Shown here piece after piece: positions 4,415 to 59,057 of a stretch of DNA of 64,000 nucleotides. The DNA is taken from the NCBI GenBank assembly GCA_948288625.1, contig CAOHYA010000001.1:486672-550671 (forward strand), read 5' to 3'. The position numbers and the translations under genes are program-made. The notes beneath the pieces were generated by a model that saw only the letters and a program-made list of their open reading frames with translations, was not told the origin of the DNA and did not search any database. Source of the stretch: an uncultured Candidatus Saccharibacteria bacterium (GTDB lineage: Bacteria > Patescibacteriota > Saccharimonadia > Saccharimonadales > Saccharimonadaceae). The first letter of the stretch is position 1, and each line of letters starts with the position of its first letter.

Positions 4415-4440
4415 GAAAATCACGCTGGCGCGTGATTTTC
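4415..4440 (+). terminator. Intrinsic terminator
   Basis: A perfect 11-bp stem gaaaatcacgc/gcgtgattttc with a 4-nt loop is followed by a T-rich tract. Confidence 0.55.
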
Positions 4441-4464
4441 TATTGGTTTGGTATACTGTTAGCA

Positions 4465-4956
4465 ATGAAACAATTGAAAGTAATCGGAACTCGGGATGAA
4501 TCGCTGTCGTATGAGGATAGGCCTACGGTTAAGGTAGTCATACGGCGTGGCGATGAGGTGTTGGTATTAAACAAAGGTTTGTTACCTGGCGGTGGCGTTG
4601 AACCAGGAGAAACGAACGTACAAGCCATTGAACGTGAGTTACGAGAAGAACTCGGCGTCAGCGTTAAAAATATACAGGAAATAGGCGAAGTAGTTCAGTA
4701 CAGAGATTTCATACAGAAAAAATATAGTATCTACGGGTATGCAGCGGAGTTTGGCGCCTTTGTGTCCGACCCGACGCCTAAGGATAACGGTGAAGCCCAA
4801 TTCCAGCTACATTGGATGACAAAGGAAGCTGCTATTGCCTATGTCTCCGGATCTATTGCTATGGTAGAAAGCGTGGTAATGCTCGGCGATGCAATTCAAG
4901 GTAGATTGTATAACCTGATGACGTCACTTACGCTCGTAAAAGCGATGACGAAATAG
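4465..4956 (+). CDS. NUDIX hydrolase
   Basis: Nudix box GGGVEPGETNVQAIERELREELGV (GX5EX7REUXEEXGU). ATG 4465 lies 7 nt after an extended -10 TGgTATACT (4449-4457), so the gene looks leaderless. Confidence 0.8.
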   Translation: MKQLKVIGTRDESLSYEDRPTVKVVIRRGDEVLVLNKGLLPGGGVEPGETNVQAIERELREELGVSVKNIQEIGEVVQYRDFIQKKYSIYGYAAEFGAFVSDPTPKDNGEAQFQLHWMTKEAAIAYVSGSIAMVESVVMLGDAIQGRLYNLMTSLTLVKAMTK

Positions 4957-4981
4957 AATCGCTTGCTGACAAGGGAAAACG

Positions 4982-5094
4982 AAAAAGCCCCGCCGTACCA
5001 TTCGTAAACGGCTTCACTCCAGGTATTTTTTGGCGTATACGGCCTTAAAATACTTGGGTTGCAGATGTTTACTCGTAGTACGGCGGGGCTTTTT
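4982..5094. repeat. Long imperfect rod-like inverted repeat between convergent genes
   Basis: Perfect 17-bp arms aaaaagccccgccgtac (4982-4998) and gtacggcggggcttttt (5078-5094). Inner pairings are gtaaac/gtttac and ccaggtatttt/aaaatacttgg. Confidence 0.5.
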
Positions 5095-5105
5095 CGATTT
5101 TGTTA

Positions 5106-7640
5106 TTAAGCAAGTCGTTTAGCTAATACCAACCGTCGGCCAATGAACTTATGAACTTCAACTACGAGGATGATAGCCATAAAGGCTGAAACGGCAGCGA
5201 CGATCATGTCGATTGCAGGTATAGGTTTGATATTCAACAATCCTTGCAAAGGTCCGAATAATGCGAACCATTGCAGTGAAATAGATACCGCTAGGCCGAC
5301 CCAGAAAATACGATGCTTTACGAGTACGCGGGTAAATGCGGATTGATAGGTACTTCGAGCGTTGATCGCGTTCGCCCACTGGATCGCTACGAGTGATACG
5401 AAGACGATGGTGTGCGCGTAATCGACGCCACGAGTGGCAATGAAGTACGCGTACAGTCCAAGTGCGATTCCGGCCATGGCGAGCGCGACAAGTACGATAC
5501 GGCTGATCATATATTTGTCAAGGATCGGCGCGGTCGGTGAAACAGGTTTTTGCTTCATGGCGCTTTTGCCACCTGGTTCGAGCCCCAGAGGAATCACCAT
5601 GGTCGTATCTGTTACTAAGTTAATCCATAGAATTTGAGCTGGTTGCAAAGGTATCGGTAGGCCGACGGCCAAGGCACCAACTGACGTAATGACTTCGCCG
5701 ATGTTCGTCGACAACAGGTAGTACAGCATGCGACGAATGTTCGCGAAGACGATGCGACCTTCGCGCATGGCCCGTACGATACTGGCAAAGTTGTCGTTGA
5801 GAAGGATGATATCACCGGCGTCTTTGGCGATTTGCGAACCGCTCCCCATGGCTACGCCGACGTGCGCATTCGTAAGCGCCGGAACATCGTTGACGCCGTC
5901 CCCCGTCATGGCAGTCACTTCTTTAAGTTTCAATATCTGAAGAATGCGGAATTTATTCTCTGGTGTCACGCGCGAGAAAATACGGGCACGGTGCGCTTCG
6001 ATGGCAAGTTGCTTGTCACTCATATCGTTCATCAAGCGGCTATCGAACACTTCGTCGCGTGACGTGACCAGCCCCAGCTTCAGTCCGATGCTATAAGCTG
6101 TCTCAAAGTGGTCACCAGTGATCATACGTACCGATACGCCAGCTGCTTGGGCGGTCTTGATGGCTTTTCGGGCGGCCGGGCGAAGCGTATCTGCCACGGC
6201 AATCAGACCGGCGAACTGCAAGCTAAACTTAGGGTGCATTTCATGGAACGCTTCGAACGTTTTTTCGACTTGCGATGTGGCGACGGCAATCACGCGGTAC
6301 CCTTGGCTCGTAAGCTGCGTCAATGCGGCTTCTGCTTCGGTGCGCTGGGCTTTTGATAAGTTGCTACGGTCGATGATGTGTTCCGGCGCGCCTTTGACGA
6401 CGAGTTCGTGCTGGCCTTTATGATGCCAAATATTCCCACTCATGGCAAAGGCTTGGTCGAATGGTAACTTCACGACCGCTTCGCCTTTTAGGTTGACGGC
6501 CGCTTCGGCCGCGCTATAGCTGATAAACGCAACGTCGAGGGGGTCGCTGCTTTTTTGGTTATGCACGTTGATGGTTTTATGAATCACAGTTGGCAAATGA
6601 TGATCAACCCAACTTGGTTGCCATGTTTCTTGGACGGATAGTTTATTTTCAGTCAGCGTGCCGGTCTTGTCGGTAGCGATAGTCGTGATGACGCCGATGG
6701 TTTCGATGGCGCTCATGCTGCGCACCAATGCCTTTTTGGCGGCCATGCGGCGCATCCCAAGTACCAAAATGACCGAGATAGCGATCGGTAAACTTTCGGG
6801 AACGGCGGATACCGAGATGGCGATTACGAAACGAAGTGCTTCGGTGAGTTCGATACCACGGCTGAGCGCCAAGATGAACGCTACGACGGCTACTGCGGCG
6901 ACGACGGCGATGATATACGCGATCAATTTATCGATTTTCTTTTGAACCGGGCTCGAAATTTCATCCGGGGAGTTACCCGTGAGCGCGGCGATCCGCCCGA
7001 ATTCGGTCTGATTACCGGTAAGGATAACCAAGCCCACGGCTTGACCCGAGGTAACGAACGAACCTTGGAAGAGAATATTGCGTTGTTCGTACACTTCTTT
7101 CTCGCCCGTAAGTGTATCGGCGGATTTACTCATCGGTGCGGACTCACCCGTCAGCAAAGCTTCGTCGGTGCGTAACGAGTCGGCTACGATGACACGCAAA
7201 TCGGCAGGGACCTTATCTCCTTCGCCTAAGTGAACGATGTCACCAGGTACAAGTAAGCTACTATCGACAGAGACCATTTCGCCGCCGCGCGTCACGGAAA
7301 CTTTCTGAGCGGTGTGTTTTTGCAGTGACCTCAAAATACGGTCAGTCGAGAAACGCTGTACGTAGTATATACCGGCGCTGGTAAGCATGATGACCGCGAT
7401 GATGATCGCGTCAAAGTACGCATGGTGCCAAATACTGATGAGCACCGCGACGAATAGCACGGCCATGAAGACGTTGGCGAATGGTTCGACGATTTTACGC
7501 CAGAGCGGCTCGCCCTTCAGTTTGATTTCGTTCGGCCCAAACTGTTTCAGACGTTCGCCCGCCTCGTACTTGGAGATACCTTCGAGGCCCGACGACAATT
7601 CTTTGTATGTGTCTTCGATGGATTGTTGGTAAAAAAGCAT
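5106..7640 (-). CDS. Cation-transporting P-type ATPase (P2, Ca2+/Mg2+-type)
   Basis: DKTGTLT phosphorylation motif, TGES, MITGD, TGDGVNDVPAL and 10 predicted TM segments. I prefer the start at 7640 (MLFYQQ...) because the 7664 start lies inside the greA terminator hairpin. TGaTACAAT lies 7 nt upstream. Confidence 0.9.
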   Translation of the reverse strand: MLFYQQSIEDTYKELSSGLEGISKYEAGERLKQFGPNEIKLKGEPLWRKIVEPFANVFMAVLFVAVLISIWHHAYFDAIIIAVIMLTSAGIYYVQRFSTDRILRSLQKHTAQKVSVTRGGEMVSVDSSLLVPGDIVHLGEGDKVPADLRVIVADSLRTDEALLTGESAPMSKSADTLTGEKEVYEQRNILFQGSFVTSGQAVGLVILTGNQTEFGRIAALTGNSPDEISSPVQKKIDKLIAYIIAVVAAVAVVAFILALSRGIELTEALRFVIAISVSAVPESLPIAISVILVLGMRRMAAKKALVRSMSAIETIGVITTIATDKTGTLTENKLSVQETWQPSWVDHHLPTVIHKTINVHNQKSSDPLDVAFISYSAAEAAVNLKGEAVVKLPFDQAFAMSGNIWHHKGQHELVVKGAPEHIIDRSNLSKAQRTEAEAALTQLTSQGYRVIAVATSQVEKTFEAFHEMHPKFSLQFAGLIAVADTLRPAARKAIKTAQAAGVSVRMITGDHFETAYSIGLKLGLVTSRDEVFDSRLMNDMSDKQLAIEAHRARIFSRVTPENKFRILQILKLKEVTAMTGDGVNDVPALTNAHVGVAMGSGSQIAKDAGDIILLNDNFASIVRAMREGRIVFANIRRMLYYLLSTNIGEVITSVGALAVGLPIPLQPAQILWINLVTDTTMVIPLGLEPGGKSAMKQKPVSPTAPILDKYMISRIVLVALAMAGIALGLYAYFIATRGVDYAHTIVFVSLVAIQWANAINARSTYQSAFTRVLVKHRIFWVGLAVSISLQWFALFGPLQGLLNIKPIPAIDMIVAAVSAFMAIILVVEVHKFIGRRLVLAKRLA

Positions 7641-7655
7641 TAGCACTATTGTATC

Positions 7656-7685
7656 AAAAAACACCTCTTATGTGAGGTGTTTTTC
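7656..7685 (-). terminator. Intrinsic terminator after greA (bidirectional shape)
   Basis: The stem acacctc/gaggtgt is flanked by an A-run and a T-run. Confidence 0.6.
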
Positions 7686-28518: not shown

Positions 28519-28558
28519 CCTGCGGAGGAATGAGTAGTTACTACTCTTCCTCCGCAGG
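28519..28558 (+). other. Very stable compound hairpin (12 bp + 6 bp) directly 5' of the hammerhead
   Basis: cctgcggaggaa (28519-30) pairs perfectly with ttcctccgcagg (28547-58). An inner gagtag/ctactc stem carries a tta loop. No T-run follows. Confidence 0.65.
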
Positions 28559-28559
28559 A

Positions 28560-28616
28560 TGCGTATCCGGAAATATATTTAGTTCCGCTGATGAGTCGTT
28601 AACGACGAAATATGCA
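28560..28616 (+). ncRNA. Hammerhead self-cleaving ribozyme, type III topology
   Basis: 5'-UGCGUAU-C^CGGAA[auauauuuag]UUCCG-CUGAUGA-GUCG[uuaa]CGAC-GAA-AUAUGCA-3'. The full C3-A9 core, G12A13A14 and U16.1-C17 are present. Helix I is 5 bp, helix II is 4 bp (G10.1-C11.1), and helix III is 7 bp (one G-U). Confidence 0.8.
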
Positions 28617-28714
28617 CTGTTATCCACATAATCAACAGATACGGCTACCGAACTGTTGTCAAAAATGTTTATGTTGCCGAAGTAGATAGCAACTTAATAT
28701 TTTAACTACTAAAC

Positions 28715-28745
28715 AAAAATACCTCTCGTGACGAGAGGTATTTTG
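28715..28745 (-). terminator. Intrinsic terminator after rplL (bidirectional shape)
   Basis: The stem tacctctcg/cgagaggta is flanked by an A-run and a T-run. Confidence 0.65.
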
Positions 28746-29735: not shown

Positions 29736-29934
29736 AAAAATCTCCTTGGTTAATATATTCGGTCGAATTGTTAAGTAACGACAATTGGCGACTAAGGCTT
29801 AGAAACTAAAAAGTCTTTGGACCTCGCATCGCCAAAGACTGAATAGAAAATGTATGTTTTACATTGTCCTCGGTAGCAAATTAAGCGTTAGATTCAGTAT
29901 AGAAGCTGTGGCGGCTACTGTCTTTGGTATGTCG
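29736..29934 (-). promoter_or_regulatory. rplJ leader with attenuator-like terminator hairpin (candidate L10 leader)
   Basis: An approximately 200-nt 5' UTR sits between the promoter and the GGAG SD. It contains agtctttgg/ccaaagact (29812-29840) followed by TTTTT on the minus strand, as in attenuation-type L10 leaders. Confidence 0.45.
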
Positions 29935-29940
29935 AGAGTA

Positions 29941-29969
29941 AGTATATATAACTGGGGTGGATTTGTCAA
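29941..29969 (-). promoter_or_regulatory. Sigma-70-type promoter of rplJL
   Basis: On the minus strand: TTGACA, a 17-bp spacer, and TATACT. Confidence 0.55.
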
Positions 29970-34532: not shown

Positions 34533-35366
34533 ATGAAAACCATGACAAACCATGCAGAAGCACAGCCAACTATCAACAATAGTGGTGAAAATTCTGCTGT
34601 AGGGCCGATGGTTGAGTCTAAAGGTGTTCCGCGACGAGAGATAAGTATTAACGCCGATTTTCTTTCTCAGAAGGAACAAGAGTTACTTGCTGAATTAAGG
34701 CAACTCGCTGACGAACGAGAAGCTCGTGCTTTATCGATGGCCGAGCCGCTTTTAGATAACGCGGCCGTCGACCTTATTCAAGGAACTGCTGTTGCAGGCC
34801 ATCAAAATGAAAGCAAAGCGCTCGTAAGTAACTTTATTCAAATTACTGAAGTACATGCCGGAAGCCTGTCACCCGTTGAAAGAGAAAAGCTTGCAGGAGC
34901 AATATTGAATCGTGTCAAGAAAATTGGCCGTAGTGGAATCCGTAGAGTTGCCCGAAACAAGATCGAGTTTATGACTCAACAACTTTCCGATAAGAAAGCT
35001 GAACACACACAGTTACAATTAGAGCATGCGAAGCTCAAAATCGAGTCGGCAGGCTTAGTTAGTACGACGAAAGAATCGGTAGATACATTACGCAAGAATT
35101 ATCAAGGGGATATCGATATTCTCGAAGAAGTGGATATTCTTGAAGCAAATGTTGATGCCGCAATCACTCCGCGATTACAGTTTGGCAAAAATGAACTCAT
35201 TGAGCTTCACGTTGAAACAGCTGAATTAGAAGCTATGGTGGCTCATGTTGGTAACGATACGCTCAGTCCTGCGCGCGGTACCGAAATTGCCGCGATTAAA
35301 GCTACGCGTTTTGGTGAAAAAGCGATACAGCAAGTAAGAAGTACTTATTCCGCAATCACGAAATAA
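34533..35366 (+). CDS. Hypothetical coiled-coil protein (277 aa)
   Basis: A clean ORF with an AAGGGA SD and long Glu/Leu/Lys-rich helices. I recognise no family. Confidence 0.5.
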   Translation: MKTMTNHAEAQPTINNSGENSAVGPMVESKGVPRREISINADFLSQKEQELLAELRQLADEREARALSMAEPLLDNAAVDLIQGTAVAGHQNESKALVSNFIQITEVHAGSLSPVEREKLAGAILNRVKKIGRSGIRRVARNKIEFMTQQLSDKKAEHTQLQLEHAKLKIESAGLVSTTKESVDTLRKNYQGDIDILEEVDILEANVDAAITPRLQFGKNELIELHVETAELEAMVAHVGNDTLSPARGTEIAAIKATRFGEKAIQQVRSTYSAITK

Positions 35367-35369
35367 AAA

Positions 35370-35406
35370 AATAAAAATCCGCCTCTCACGAAGCGGATTT
35401 TTATTT
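35370..35406. terminator. Bidirectional intrinsic terminator (shared with rplA)
   Basis: The stem aaaatccgc/gcggatttt is flanked by A- and T-runs between convergent genes. Confidence 0.6.
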
Positions 35407-35421
35407 TAGGCGGATTCGCTA

Positions 35422-49616: not shown

Positions 49617-51407
49617 ATGATGATTAACAATTTTACTTCGATGAAACAGACGCTCGCCCTGTACTGGGGAGAGGTGCGTCAAAATAAAAAACTGCTTATA
49701 CCAACGCTTATTTTCATTCCGTTGGCCATATTCTTAAATACGTACGCAACCGCTTGGATTGTGTCGCATGTTATTAATGAGCTCACGACAAACTCGTATG
49801 ACACAGCGAATTTATTCCCGACCTTTATGCCATGGATCATCGCCTACATCGCTTCGACGGCTTTAGGAGAGTTGGTACTGTGGCGTGCAGTGCTGTTTTT
49901 CGGGTGGAAATTGGAAACGAAAGTTGTCTACGGGCTTAACCGCAAAAGCTTCGACACATTAGCGACGCAGTCGCTCGACTTTCATAACGCCCGTTTCGGA
50001 GGGTCGCTGGTATCGCAGGTGAACAAGTTTTCATCCTCGTTCGTCGTTCTTTCGAACATGGTGATGTTCAACTTGCTCCCGTTGTTGTTCTCATTTATAT
50101 TCACCTTCCTGATTCTTGGCCCGCAACTGCCGTTGTTCACGGTTGGTATCGCCGTCTTCGCGGTACTCTTCATGCTCATCGCGACATTGAGTTTTAGGCA
50201 AGTGCAAAAACTAACTATCGCTGAAGCTGAAACCAAAACAAAGCTCAGCGGCCAGTTGGCGGATAGCATCACGAACATTATGGCCGTCAAGGGTAACGCC
50301 CATGAAGAACTGGAACGGTCTCGTTACGATATACTTAACAAGAAATCCCTCACCGCGACCAATAACTTGATGATCGCTTCGACGAAACGGGATATTGGTT
50401 TCGGTATCGTGATCGTCGCTTTAAGCGGCTTGGCCTTTATCGTATTGGTCGGTGGCCAACAATGGTTCGCCGTCCAAATCGGTACGCTTGTATTGGCGAT
50501 TACTTACAGCACACAGATATTAGGCCAACTCTGGGGGTTCAATAATATTCTGCGGGCGACTTCACGTGCGTTCGGTGATGCCTACGAAATGACGAACATT
50601 CTCCAGGAAGCTCATTCGGTAGTGGATGTGCCGAGGGCCAAGAAACTGAAGTTGAACAAAGGTAAGATCGAATTTAAAGGCGTCGCGTTCCGTCACGCCG
50701 ATGCTTTACCGGAAGATATGCTCTTCAAGAACCTGTCGTTTACCATCAAAGCGGGTGAACAAGTGGGATTCGTCGGGCCTTCAGGTTCCGGCAAAACAAC
50801 CTTGACCCGGCTGCTACTGCGCTTTACCGACATCCAATCAGGTGAAATACTTTTCGATGGCCAAAGTATCGCAAAGGTCACGCAGCAAAGTCTGCGTAGT
50901 TCGGTAGCCTACGTTCCGCAAGAACCATTGCTCTTCCATCGCACGATTCGTGAAAATATTGCCTATGGTAAACCTAAGGCAAGCGACGATGAAATCGTCA
51001 AAGCTGCCAAACAGGCTCATGCCTGGGAGTTCATTAAGAAAATGCCACAAGGCTTAGATACGGTCGTGGGCGAACGAGGCGTCAAACTATCCGGCGGTCA
51101 ACGTCAGCGTATTGCTATCGCCCGGGCAATCATAAAGGATGCGCCTATCTTGGTGCTTGATGAAGCTACGTCGGCACTTGATAGTGAAAGCGAGACGCTC
51201 ATTCAAGACGCCTTAGCGAAGCTTATGAAAGGCCGTACGAGTATCGTCATTGCTCACCGTCTGTCTACGATTGCCAAGCTTGACCGAATTGTCGTACTCA
51301 GCGATGGTGAGATCGTCGAACAAGGTACCCATGACGAACTCGTGCAAGCGAAGGGTTCGTATTCAAAGTTATGGAAGCACCAGTCCGGTGGCTTTATCGA
51401 GGAATAA
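49617..51407 (+). CDS. ABC transporter, fused permease/ATP-binding exporter (MsbA-like)
   Basis: Six TM segments, Walker A GPSGSGKTT, signature LSGGQRQR and Walker B ILVLDEATSALD. ATG 49617 lies 7 nt after TATACT (49604-09). Confidence 0.9.
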   Translation: MMINNFTSMKQTLALYWGEVRQNKKLLIPTLIFIPLAIFLNTYATAWIVSHVINELTTNSYDTANLFPTFMPWIIAYIASTALGELVLWRAVLFFGWKLETKVVYGLNRKSFDTLATQSLDFHNARFGGSLVSQVNKFSSSFVVLSNMVMFNLLPLLFSFIFTFLILGPQLPLFTVGIAVFAVLFMLIATLSFRQVQKLTIAEAETKTKLSGQLADSITNIMAVKGNAHEELERSRYDILNKKSLTATNNLMIASTKRDIGFGIVIVALSGLAFIVLVGGQQWFAVQIGTLVLAITYSTQILGQLWGFNNILRATSRAFGDAYEMTNILQEAHSVVDVPRAKKLKLNKGKIEFKGVAFRHADALPEDMLFKNLSFTIKAGEQVGFVGPSGSGKTTLTRLLLRFTDIQSGEILFDGQSIAKVTQQSLRSSVAYVPQEPLLFHRTIRENIAYGKPKASDDEIVKAAKQAHAWEFIKKMPQGLDTVVGERGVKLSGGQRQRIAIARAIIKDAPILVLDEATSALDSESETLIQDALAKLMKGRTSIVIAHRLSTIAKLDRIVVLSDGEIVEQGTHDELVQAKGSYSKLWKHQSGGFIEE

Positions 51408-51413
51408 AGAACA

Positions 51414-51446
51414 TAAAAAAAGAGGCATATGACTGCCTCTTTTTTA
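51414..51446. terminator. Bidirectional intrinsic terminator
   Basis: The stem agaggca/tgcctct is flanked by A7 and T6 runs between convergent genes. Confidence 0.65.
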
Positions 51447-58839: not shown

Positions 58840-59057
58840 TTGGTATCCTTGTCTGTTTTTTGTATTTCACTTGCTAACTTCAATACATCGTTACCTGACT
58901 TATGTTTGATGACTATCGCCGGATTATCGGCGGTACCATTACGTTTTACGGTTTTGCCTTTGCTCGTTATGGTAGTCGGCTCGTGGTGAACCGATTTAAT
59001 AATTCCTTGGGCAAGCCCGTTTCCCCATTGCCATGCGACGTGATCACCTGTTTTCAT
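58836..59057 (-). CDS. DUF2945 (HVA-Tudor-like) small protein
   Basis: GDHVAWQWGNGLAQGIIKSV...TSKGKTVKRNG is the family pattern. Its stop overlaps the start of the next gene by 4 nt. Confidence 0.6.
   Translation of the reverse strand: MKTGDHVAWQWGNGLAQGIIKSVHHEPTTITSKGKTVKRNGTADNPAIVIKHKSGNDVLKLASEIQKTDKDTK

Follow-up and report, generated by a model that had tools for sequence, protein, structure and literature searches.

We analysed a 64,000-nucleotide (nt) stretch of the genome of an uncultured Candidatus Saccharibacteria bacterium (contig CAOHYA010000001.1, positions 486,672 to 550,671 of the forward strand), called the window throughout, in which an earlier reading of the bare letters had proposed a complete type III hammerhead ribozyme in an intergenic region. 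The element lies at 28560-28616 on the plus strand and ends the 3' untranslated region (3'-UTR) of a two-gene membrane-protein cassette (26211-28472, plus strand). Read directly from the DNA, it is a complete type III hammerhead that agrees base for base with the original prediction, all of whose coordinates and bases for the motif were confirmed. The cassette genes and the parts of the motif are the following.

26211-27794, plus strand: cassette gene 1, encoding a membrane protein of 527 amino acids (aa), always paired with gene 2
27807-28472, plus strand: cassette gene 2, encoding a helical, single-pass membrane protein of 221 aa, with a TAA stop codon at 28470-28472
28560-28566, plus strand: helix III 5' strand UGCGUAU; U16.1 is 28566; 7 base pairs (bp) with the 3' strand, one of them G-U
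28567-28568, plus strand: cleavage site predicted from the hammerhead consensus, between C17 (28567) and C1.1 (28568)
28568-28572 / 28583-28587, plus strand: helix I CGGAA / UUCCG, 5 bp, with the 10-nt loop 1 at 28573-28582
28588-28594, plus strand: catalytic core C3 U4 G5 A6 U7 G8 A9 (CUGAUGA), as aligned to the core of the Rfam family RF00008
28595-28606, plus strand: helix II GUCG / CGAC with loop 2 UUAA; G10.1-C11.1 is 28595-28606
28607-28609, plus strand: core G12 A13 A14 (GAA), invariant in 16 of the 16 sequences compared below
28610-28616, plus strand: helix III 3' strand AUAUGCA; A15.1 is 28610 and pairs with U28566 (A15.1-U16.1)

In full, the motif reads UGCGUAU-C-CGGAA-(AUAUAUUUAG)-UUCCG-CUGAUGA-GUCG-(UUAA)-CGAC-GAA-AUAUGCA (28560-28616, plus strand). 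Its strands follow the type III order, helix III 5' strand, H17, helix I, core, helix II, GAA and helix III 3' strand, with helices I and II closed by loops and helix III open. The two core-adjacent pairs, G28595-C28606 (N10.1-N11.1) and C28568-G28587 (N1.1-N2.1), either of which is a ground for rejection when broken (PMC3088659), are intact. Folded in isolation, the 57-nt stretch forms a three-way junction both as the minimum free energy (MFE) and as the centroid structure, at -12.4 kcal/mol, with a z-score of only -1.0.

A plus-strand match to Rfam Hammerhead_3 (RF00008) had been expected here, and a permissive scan did return one at exactly 28560-28616, covering model positions 1-54 of 54 at 43.2 bits (E-value 2.7e-8 in the local scan, 4.3e-6 for the whole window against all 4227 families). 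The score is nonetheless below the curated gathering score of 48.5 bits, which is an annotation threshold and no biochemical criterion, and the default Rfam scan is silent on the hammerhead for that reason. A descriptor scan for types I, II and III on both strands of the window found this one site only, with helices I, II and III of 5, 4 and 7 bp. An equal or better type III motif (helix I of at least 5, helix II of at least 4 and helix III of at least 6 bp) appeared in 3 of 6000 first-order-Markov windows of 64 kb, which corresponds to p ~5e-4 per window.

The window has 15 copies of the heptamer CTGATGA, 11 on the plus strand and four on the minus strand, and only one of them is a hammerhead. 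The original prediction had counted five other plus-strand copies; there are in fact ten, and none of them forms a hammerhead, as it had maintained for its five. Its rejection of the reverse-strand copies likewise stands for all four. The heptamer is itself in excess in the window (15 copies against 6.55 expected, a number that 0 of 100 shuffles reach), and most copies probably lie within coding sequence.

Hammerheads behind homologous gene pairs

Comparison loci (designated L031, L034 and so on) were obtained through graded homologs of the 221-aa protein; the 69 homologs, where named, come only from Candidatus Saccharibacteria, Microsaccharimonas or Saccharimonadaceae. A type III hammerhead stands 94-108 nt past the stop codon of gene 2 in 14 distinct sequences, which we call clade A, and two loci with a variant hammerhead bring the comparison to 16 sequences. 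The neighbourhoods of the clade-A cassettes are unrelated, with rplL in the window and in L031, glycosyltransferases in L034 and an HD-domain gene in L039. Similarity among the loci ends exactly at the 3' end of helix III (28616), and the flanks are unalignable.

Across the 16 sequences, core substitutions are confined to N7 (U to C in L053) and to H17, which is C in 15 sequences, A in L034 and never G. The pairs A15.1-U16.1 (U-A) and G10.1-C11.1 (G-C) are unchanged in 16 of 16, and N1.1-N2.1 is C-G in 14 sequences and U-A in two. Within clade A, the third pair of helix I goes from G-C to G-U (L039) to A-U (L054), and the outer pairs of helix III alternate between A-U and G-C. The stem of helix II is invariant there; the variant departs from it in the fourth pair, with C-G in place of G-C. 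The loop ends are fixed in clade A (AU...AG in loop 1, U..A in loop 2) and the loop interiors vary. A tertiary contact between loops 1 and 2 gives fast cleavage at low Mg2+ (PMC6155905), and the clade-A pattern of fixed ends and variable interiors appears compatible with such contacts.

The variant, found in L064 and L068-70, is a different type III hammerhead in the same position, with an intact core and all three helices changed: helix I is UAUAUUU/RAAUAUA, helix II GUCC/GGAC, and helix III either GUCU/AGAC or UAACCU/AGGUUA. A covariance model built from clade A alone recovers the variant loci at 28.9 and 32.4 bits. Run over 230 kb (the window plus the loci), this model found no further convincing copy, and the permissive Rfam scan found no further ribozyme in the whole window and 15 loci. 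In the 16-sequence alignment, 11 of 17 pairs show compensatory (both-side) changes, and 87.9% of the cells are paired. The observed covariation is 0.285, against 0.096 after shuffling (0 of 500 shuffles reach it) and at most 0.059 in controls with slid partners.

All ten clade-A relatives that were scanned match RF00008 over the full model, at 32.8-46.9 bits, each below the gathering score. As the whole clade scores 32-47 bits, the 48.5-bit cut-off is too strict for it, and it is because of this cut-off that a convincing type III clade in Candidate Phyla Radiation (CPR) genomes is missing from standard annotation. The type III hammerhead itself is a known kind of ribozyme; what is new is an unannotated clade of such hammerheads.

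A chance resemblance, or an inactive and decaying relic, would fit the sub-threshold Rfam score and the unremarkable folding z-score of the window element. Set against this are the rate of ~5e-4 per window at which chance supplies such a motif, a core that is strictly conserved in 16 sequences with unalignable flanks, and compensatory changes in all three helices. We regard this explanation as most improbable, effectively refuted by the comparison of the sequences. The original prediction is thus borne out, by the sequence rules that the element obeys and by hammerhead-compatible variation in 16 distinct sequences, and we hold with high confidence that it is a real, selected hammerhead.

The 3' end of the cassette mRNA

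The 3'-UTR consists, in this order, of a short box next to the stop codon (see below), hairpins P1 and P2, and the hammerhead. Together with the promoter of the cassette and the nearest terminator downstream, the signals at the two ends of the transcription unit are as follows.

26024-26052, plus strand: putative cassette promoter, by its consensus; -35 TTGAAA (26024-26029), a 17-nt spacer and an extended -10 TGCTATAAT (26044-26052)
28488-28515, plus strand: hairpin P1, from predicted folds, present in all clade-A sequences with variable length
28519-28558, plus strand: hairpin P2, a long GC-rich stem CUGCGGAGGAAUGAGUAG / CUACUCUUCCUCCGCAG that ends 1 nt before the hammerhead
28716-28744, called on the minus strand, with the plus strand also flagged by a crude scan: hairpin of the convergent rplL terminator

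The promoter block TTGAnn-N17-TGnGCTATAAT is kept in 14 of 14 aligned cassette loci. At the other end, a long GC-rich hairpin lies immediately 5' of the hammerhead in every ribozyme locus. In the window, P2 lacks a U-tract, the next sequence being GAUGCGUAUCC, and a terminator scan does not call it. Compensatory changes are seen at eight of its 13 pairs, and the covariation observed for the structure of P2 plus hammerhead is not matched by any of 500 shuffles. For the 95-nt UTR (28473-28567) of the predicted 5' cleavage product, the folding energy is -55.6 kcal/mol (z = -8.5).

In a neighbour-joining tree of the 221-aa protein, the clade-A loci form one inner clade with the variant as its sister, and the outgroup is devoid of the ribozyme. 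Nested inside the inner clade are three hammerhead-less loci (L036, L062 and L063). All hammerhead-less loci have a hairpin in the slot of the hammerhead, and in L044, L062 and L063 a clear U-tract comes after it. In L062, where the cassette stands beside rplL as it does in the window, and in L063, the terminator U-tract is directly followed by a conserved block, TTATCCACA...CAGATAC...TGTTGTCAAAAAT, and the same block abuts the 3' end of the hammerhead in the window and L031. The hammerhead module and the terminator are therefore positional equivalents. The module resembles intrinsic (Rho-independent) terminators in that it occupies the same slot in homologous loci and in that the mRNA would end in a stable GC-rich hairpin; it is unlike them in that its hairpin is without a U-tract and the end would come from self-cleavage, with a 2',3'-cyclic phosphate, and not from release by the polymerase.

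The conserved block is about 50 nt long (TTATCCACA..AACAGATAC..N..TGTTGTCAAAAAT; 28620-28675 in the window, where it contains the inverted repeat CAACAG/CTGTTG). It recurs at ~500-570 of L004 (minus strand), ~5825-5880 of L031, ~3775-3830 of L062 and ~3770-3830 of L063. Neither the cassette nor the hammerhead need be there for it to occur; an operator or promoter region is a possible reading.

On balance, and with some reserve, we favour the view that a genuine, evolutionarily maintained type III hammerhead gives the operon mRNA a 3' end that does not depend on a terminator. We infer co-transcription with the operon, cleavage, and a purpose in 3'-end formation or insulation. Transcription from the cassette promoter (~26024-26052) would proceed through both genes, P1 and the U-tract-less P2, and then the ribozyme, which would fold and cut between C28567 and C28568. 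The mRNA would keep a 2',3'-cyclic-phosphate 3' end a few nucleotides past the very stable P1/P2, and the RNA downstream would be detached, as ~180 nt up to the rplL terminator in the window and as a terminator fragment or the next gene elsewhere. The module would do the job of an intrinsic terminator hairpin, providing a defined, protected and context-independent 3' end, with the polymerase not stopped. Processing of mRNAs or polycistrons and effects through the 3'-UTR have been tentatively suggested as roles of hammerheads and twisters in bacteria (PMC3088659, PMC6765202), and such a function agrees with them.

What follows the ribozyme differs from locus to locus. A terminator lies 1-25 nt past it in L034, L045, L047 and L055, a convergent gene end in L046, L054 and L064, and in the window the rplL terminator ~100 nt further on, whose hairpin is the probable stop for plus-strand transcripts that pass the hammerhead. 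In 6 of 15 loci (L031, L039, L050, L051, L053 and L056), a co-directional gene comes at most ~90 nt past the hammerhead with no terminator between. These six loci would suit a role in polycistron processing, in which the ribozyme parts the cassette mRNA from a co-transcribed downstream gene and so leads to differing stability or translation, as has been suggested for bacterial hammerheads (PMC3088659; PMC6765202). In the window and eight other loci, however, a terminator or a convergent gene end follows and there is nothing to separate. The downstream genes are moreover unrelated between loci, and each locus has one ribozyme, with no flanking pairs; we consider polycistron processing quite improbable as the general explanation.

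Several points weigh against 3'-end formation by a maintained hammerhead. The 43.2 bits of the window fall short of the 48.5-bit gathering score, as do the scores of 11 relatives (31.9-46.9 bits, E-values 1e-8 to 4e-3), so that every member is sub-threshold. The 16-sequence alignment was fitted to the model, and most of its covariation signal is the contrast between clade A and the variant, which stands for one or two evolutionary events only. Clade A alone has just two compensatory pairs in the hammerhead, and an invariant helix II. Folding of the whole 3'-UTR of the window does not favour helix III, with a probability of 0.03 in the absence of the 5' arm (nearest-neighbour prediction; the arm is described below). 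Lastly, the presence of the ribozyme 1-25 nt ahead of a good terminator is unexplained by simple 3'-end formation.

Pairing between the ends of the transcript

Two of the following elements, the 5' arm and the 3' box, are complementary and could bring the ends of the bicistronic mRNA together in what we call the stalk.

26101-26112, plus strand: 5'-UTR segment GCUGUAUGUGAA, the 5' arm; reverse complement of the box, with 11 of 12 positions pairing in the window
26119-26173, plus strand: 5'-UTR hairpin, read from the sequence; 17-bp stem GUAGUGCUGAGGCAUUU / AAAUGCCUCAGUACUAC, between the 5' arm and the ribosome-binding site
28473-28485, plus strand: 3' box, or 3' arm, UUCACACACAGCG (consensus UCACAUACAGCG), directly 3' of the stop codon of gene 2

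The box (11-12 nt) is near-invariant in the 14 clade-A sequences and begins 0-2 nt after the stop codon in all of them. That stop codon, directly before the box, is TAA in 14 of 14 clade-A loci; terminator-type loci end gene 2 with TAG, except L044 (TAA), and among the variant loci L064 has TAG and L068 TAA. The 5'-UTR hairpin is kept in most cassette loci and is cleanly deleted in L039, L047, L054, L055 and L068.

In the window the stalk joins 26101-26112 to 28473-28484, with one mismatch (A26106.C28479), and is not significant alone. Local-window and uninterrupted-helix tests were applied to 17 loci, and in 15 of them the longest unbroken stalk helix surpasses almost every shuffle; in the relatives this helix is 9-16 bp long. 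Covariation is visible within clade A, where L045 and L055 combine the box sequence ...CAGUG with the 5' arm sequence ACUG..., and complementarity is held by wholly different sequences in L064, L068, L036, L065 and L066 (16 bp). At least five sequence versions of the stalk exist, with G-C to A-U and G.U changes. The G.U positions in L031, L063 and L066 leave pairing of the sense-strand RNA as the only one possible. A 5'-3' UTR stalk of the ~2.4-kb bicistronic mRNA is thus kept up by covariation across the whole gene-pair family.

Base pairing between the 5'- and 3'-UTRs occurs in bacterial mRNAs such as icaR of Staphylococcus aureus and hbs of Bacillus subtilis, and also in rRNA processing stalks. 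Like icaR and hbs, the cassette has a segment just past the stop codon that pairs with its own 5'-UTR, here conserved by covariation. It is unlike them in that 24-105 nt separate its 5' arm from the start codon downstream, the ribosome-binding site stays uncovered, and the helix is short (9-16 bp). We know of no precedent for a 5'-3' stalk coupled with a ribozyme.

The position of the box suggests, as a refinement compatible with 3'-end formation, that the ribozyme could be gated. The free box would hold the hammerhead inactive by way of the 5' strand of helix III (the tail), the region of its 3' strand, or the core; this we judge unlikely. The hammerhead would become active, in a model that is just as doubtful, once the box is sequestered by the stalk with the 5' arm (26101-26112) or by a ribosome that ends translation at the TAA next to it. 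With similarly low probability, cleavage would in that case report an mRNA that is full-length and closed, or one that is being translated. More speculatively worded, the whole would be a device for managing transcript ends, in which the stalk ties the ends together, sequesters the box and licenses folding and cutting of the hammerhead; we entertain this, at the same low level, as a thermodynamic model. If true, only full-length, closed (or translated) transcripts would gain a hairpin-capped, cyclic-phosphate 3' end. The cassette would then hold the first natural case in bacteria of a hammerhead gated by its conformation, and a case of an intrinsic terminator functionally replaced by a ribozyme.

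Some observations are in favour of gating. The box lies 0-2 nt from the stop codon throughout clade A, and it contains AUAC, a sequence that is also found in the 3' strand of helix III. RNAalifold favours pairing of the box with the core over helix III, and the alternative and the hammerhead fold are within ~3 kcal/mol of each other in most sequences. A further pairing, P0, of the box with the tail ending at H17, closes the UTR of the 5' product in the MFE structure of 12 of 14 clade-A sequences and is strong in L047 and L054 (-17.3 kcal/mol; 10-13 of 3000 shuffles). The stalk shares strands with P0 and, indirectly, with helix III, and in 8 of 12 cofolded loci helix III is predicted with a probability at least 0.2 higher with the authentic 5' arm than with a scrambled one (with the real arm, from 0.03 to 0.28 in the window, from 0.00 to 0.91 in L047 and from 0.02 to 0.87 in L039).

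Other observations tell against it. The duplex of box and core is no better than 5-50% of dinucleotide shuffles, L064 included, and such pairing was rejected as a general role of the box. P0 does not rise above chance in the window or in L034, L046, L049-51 and L055, and the variant L064 lacks it; as a universal feature P0 is rejected, and as a predicted fold it is a lineage-specific candidate only. The arm has no effect in L031, L045, L053 and L068. The stalk is equally present in terminator-type loci without a ribozyme; it therefore belongs to the operon mRNA as such, not to the ribozyme, and did not evolve to gate the hammerhead. The case for gating is, besides, one of thermodynamic prediction throughout, which ignores tertiary structure and kinetics.

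Genomic setting and known systems

On the same strand upstream of the cassette are genes for an RCC1/ricin-domain protein and two pseudopilin-like genes; downstream, the convergent rplL and rplJ genes follow with their terminator and leader. Further neighbours are dnaX in the window and, beyond rplJ on the source scaffold, tmk and dcd. The leader is the sole match of the default Rfam scan of the window.

29798-29945, minus strand: ribosomal protein L10 leader (RF00557), 52.4 bits, above threshold

This leader lies upstream of rplJ and is also found in L003, L031 and L062. The original prediction had placed the hammerhead by reference to the rplL terminator, but the element belongs to the upstream cassette. 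L003 and L004 encode an identical RplL protein, yet have neither the gene pair nor the hammerhead, and the element is therefore not part of the rplL region. Linkage of the hammerhead to rplL is also ruled out by its recurrence at loci without rplL (L034, L039, L064 and others). The cassette had further been called acquired-looking: its composition is not aberrant, but the site is variable, as the same two loci show. The dnaX-rplL interval (21806-28472 in the window; also L003, L004 and L031) is a variable hotspot for surface and membrane genes, and genomes with an identical RplL protein bear differing gene sets in it (RCC1/ricin protein, pseudopilin-like genes, cassette).

The cassette proteins belong to no family from Pfam, NCBIfam or PADLOC, and sequence searches of the PDB were uninformative. 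A model of the 221-aa protein (AlphaFold 2, AF2; predicted local distance difference test, pLDDT, 83) has no significant fold match in the PDB by Foldseek. LemA was rejected as the family of a cassette protein, the match being only at E = 1.8. Both proteins match PHROG families, the 527-aa protein phrog_2087 (E 2e-6) and the 221-aa protein phrog_1383 (E 3.6e-22).

Hammerheads of types I, II and III are well documented in bacteria, mostly near prophage genes (PMC3088659, PMC6155905), and the usual phage association had been mentioned for the present element too; none was found here. IMG/VR gave 0 matches to a family-specific hammerhead pattern and 0 relatives by protein profile, and GenBank phages gave only remote matches to the 221-aa protein (25-28% identity, in jumbo phages of Proteobacteria). 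The 26 IMG/VR viral contigs that share the helix II stem all carry unrelated, type I hammerheads, and a phage or mobile origin was rejected.

The arm and the box could also be inverted repeats at the ends of a two-gene cassette that is mobile or invertible and possibly derived from a phage, with the hammerhead as baggage. The inverted repeats do flank the two genes, the genomic position of the cassette differs, genomes with an identical RplL protein lack it at the rplL site, and the PHROG matches point the same way. However, no recombinase, integrase or phage genes are present among the flanking open reading frames (ORFs) examined by Pfam, the repeats enclose neither the promoter nor the hammerhead, and none of ~25 loci shows an inverted copy. 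The sequence of the repeats varies between clades with complementarity kept, the G.U positions noted above allow only RNA of the sense strand to pair, and IMG/VR contains no copy of the ribozyme and no relatives of its gene. We find this explanation very unlikely.

Compared with the type III hammerheads of RF00008 (sTRSV, viroids and bacterial type III), the Saccharibacteria element has an identical core, the same order of helices with helix III open, a 4-bp helix II with a tetraloop, a 5-bp helix I with a medium loop, and the pairs A15.1-U16.1 and G10.1-C11.1. It differs in that it and its clade are sub-threshold, and in being a single chromosomal copy in a CPR bacterium, outside any circular RNA replicon or tandem repeat and not near integrase or phage genes. 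Bacterial type III examples are reportedly among those of Perreault et al. 2011 and of de la Pena and Garcia-Robles 2010. The synthetic insulator RiboJ is a derivative of the sTRSV type III hammerhead, in which a hammerhead beside a hairpin gives a context-independent mRNA end; RiboJ is engineered and acts on the 5' end, unlike the Saccharibacteria element, which is natural and at the 3' end.

The prophage-associated hammerheads (PMC3088659) are similarly intergenic, on the sense strand of a protein-coding unit, with a proposed part in mRNA processing. They are usually several, often of type I or II, and flank variable small genes, in contrast to a single type III hammerhead with a fixed place behind one gene pair, alternating with terminators. 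The discontinuous hammerhead in the 3'-UTR of mammalian CLEC2 genes (PMC6765202) also has the stop codon before it and the normal 3'-end signal after it, and its cleavage removes the canonical 3' end. It is eukaryotic, however, split by hundreds of nucleotides, and lowers expression by removal of the poly(A) signal, whereas the Saccharibacteria element is compact and has conserved protective hairpins in front. These hairpins suggest that the cleaved form is the intended product.

With the exception of glmS, no bacterial self-cleaving ribozyme has a well-understood function, although hammerheads are abundant in bacteria (PMC6765202). A literature search found no paper naming both 'hammerhead ribozyme' and Saccharibacteria, and when the terms Patescibacteria, CPR and TM7 were added there was none among the matches listed. 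Unlike most bacterial hammerheads, those of the present clade keep a fixed syntenic position behind one conserved operon, in a chromosomal context without a phage link. Close relatives with a terminator in the slot of the hammerhead provide natural controls, and the protective hairpin and the covarying stalk lead to specific, testable predictions on the function of bacterial hammerheads.

Some other elements of the window may be mentioned. Sub-threshold Rfam matches to Thr_leader (35342-35407, plus strand, 34 bits), STnc40 (51374-51445, plus strand, 31 bits) and sR44 (58979-59032, minus strand, 26 bits) are probably due to chance. At 4981-5095 (plus strand), between the convergent ORFs 4432-4956 (plus strand) and 5106-7664 (minus strand), there is a near-perfect hairpin of 115 nt (-64.9 kcal/mol, z = -10.6). 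It gives a sub-threshold Rfam match to the eukaryotic miRNA family mir-2513 (43.8 bits against a gathering score of 89), and is probably a long bidirectional terminator or a palindromic element.

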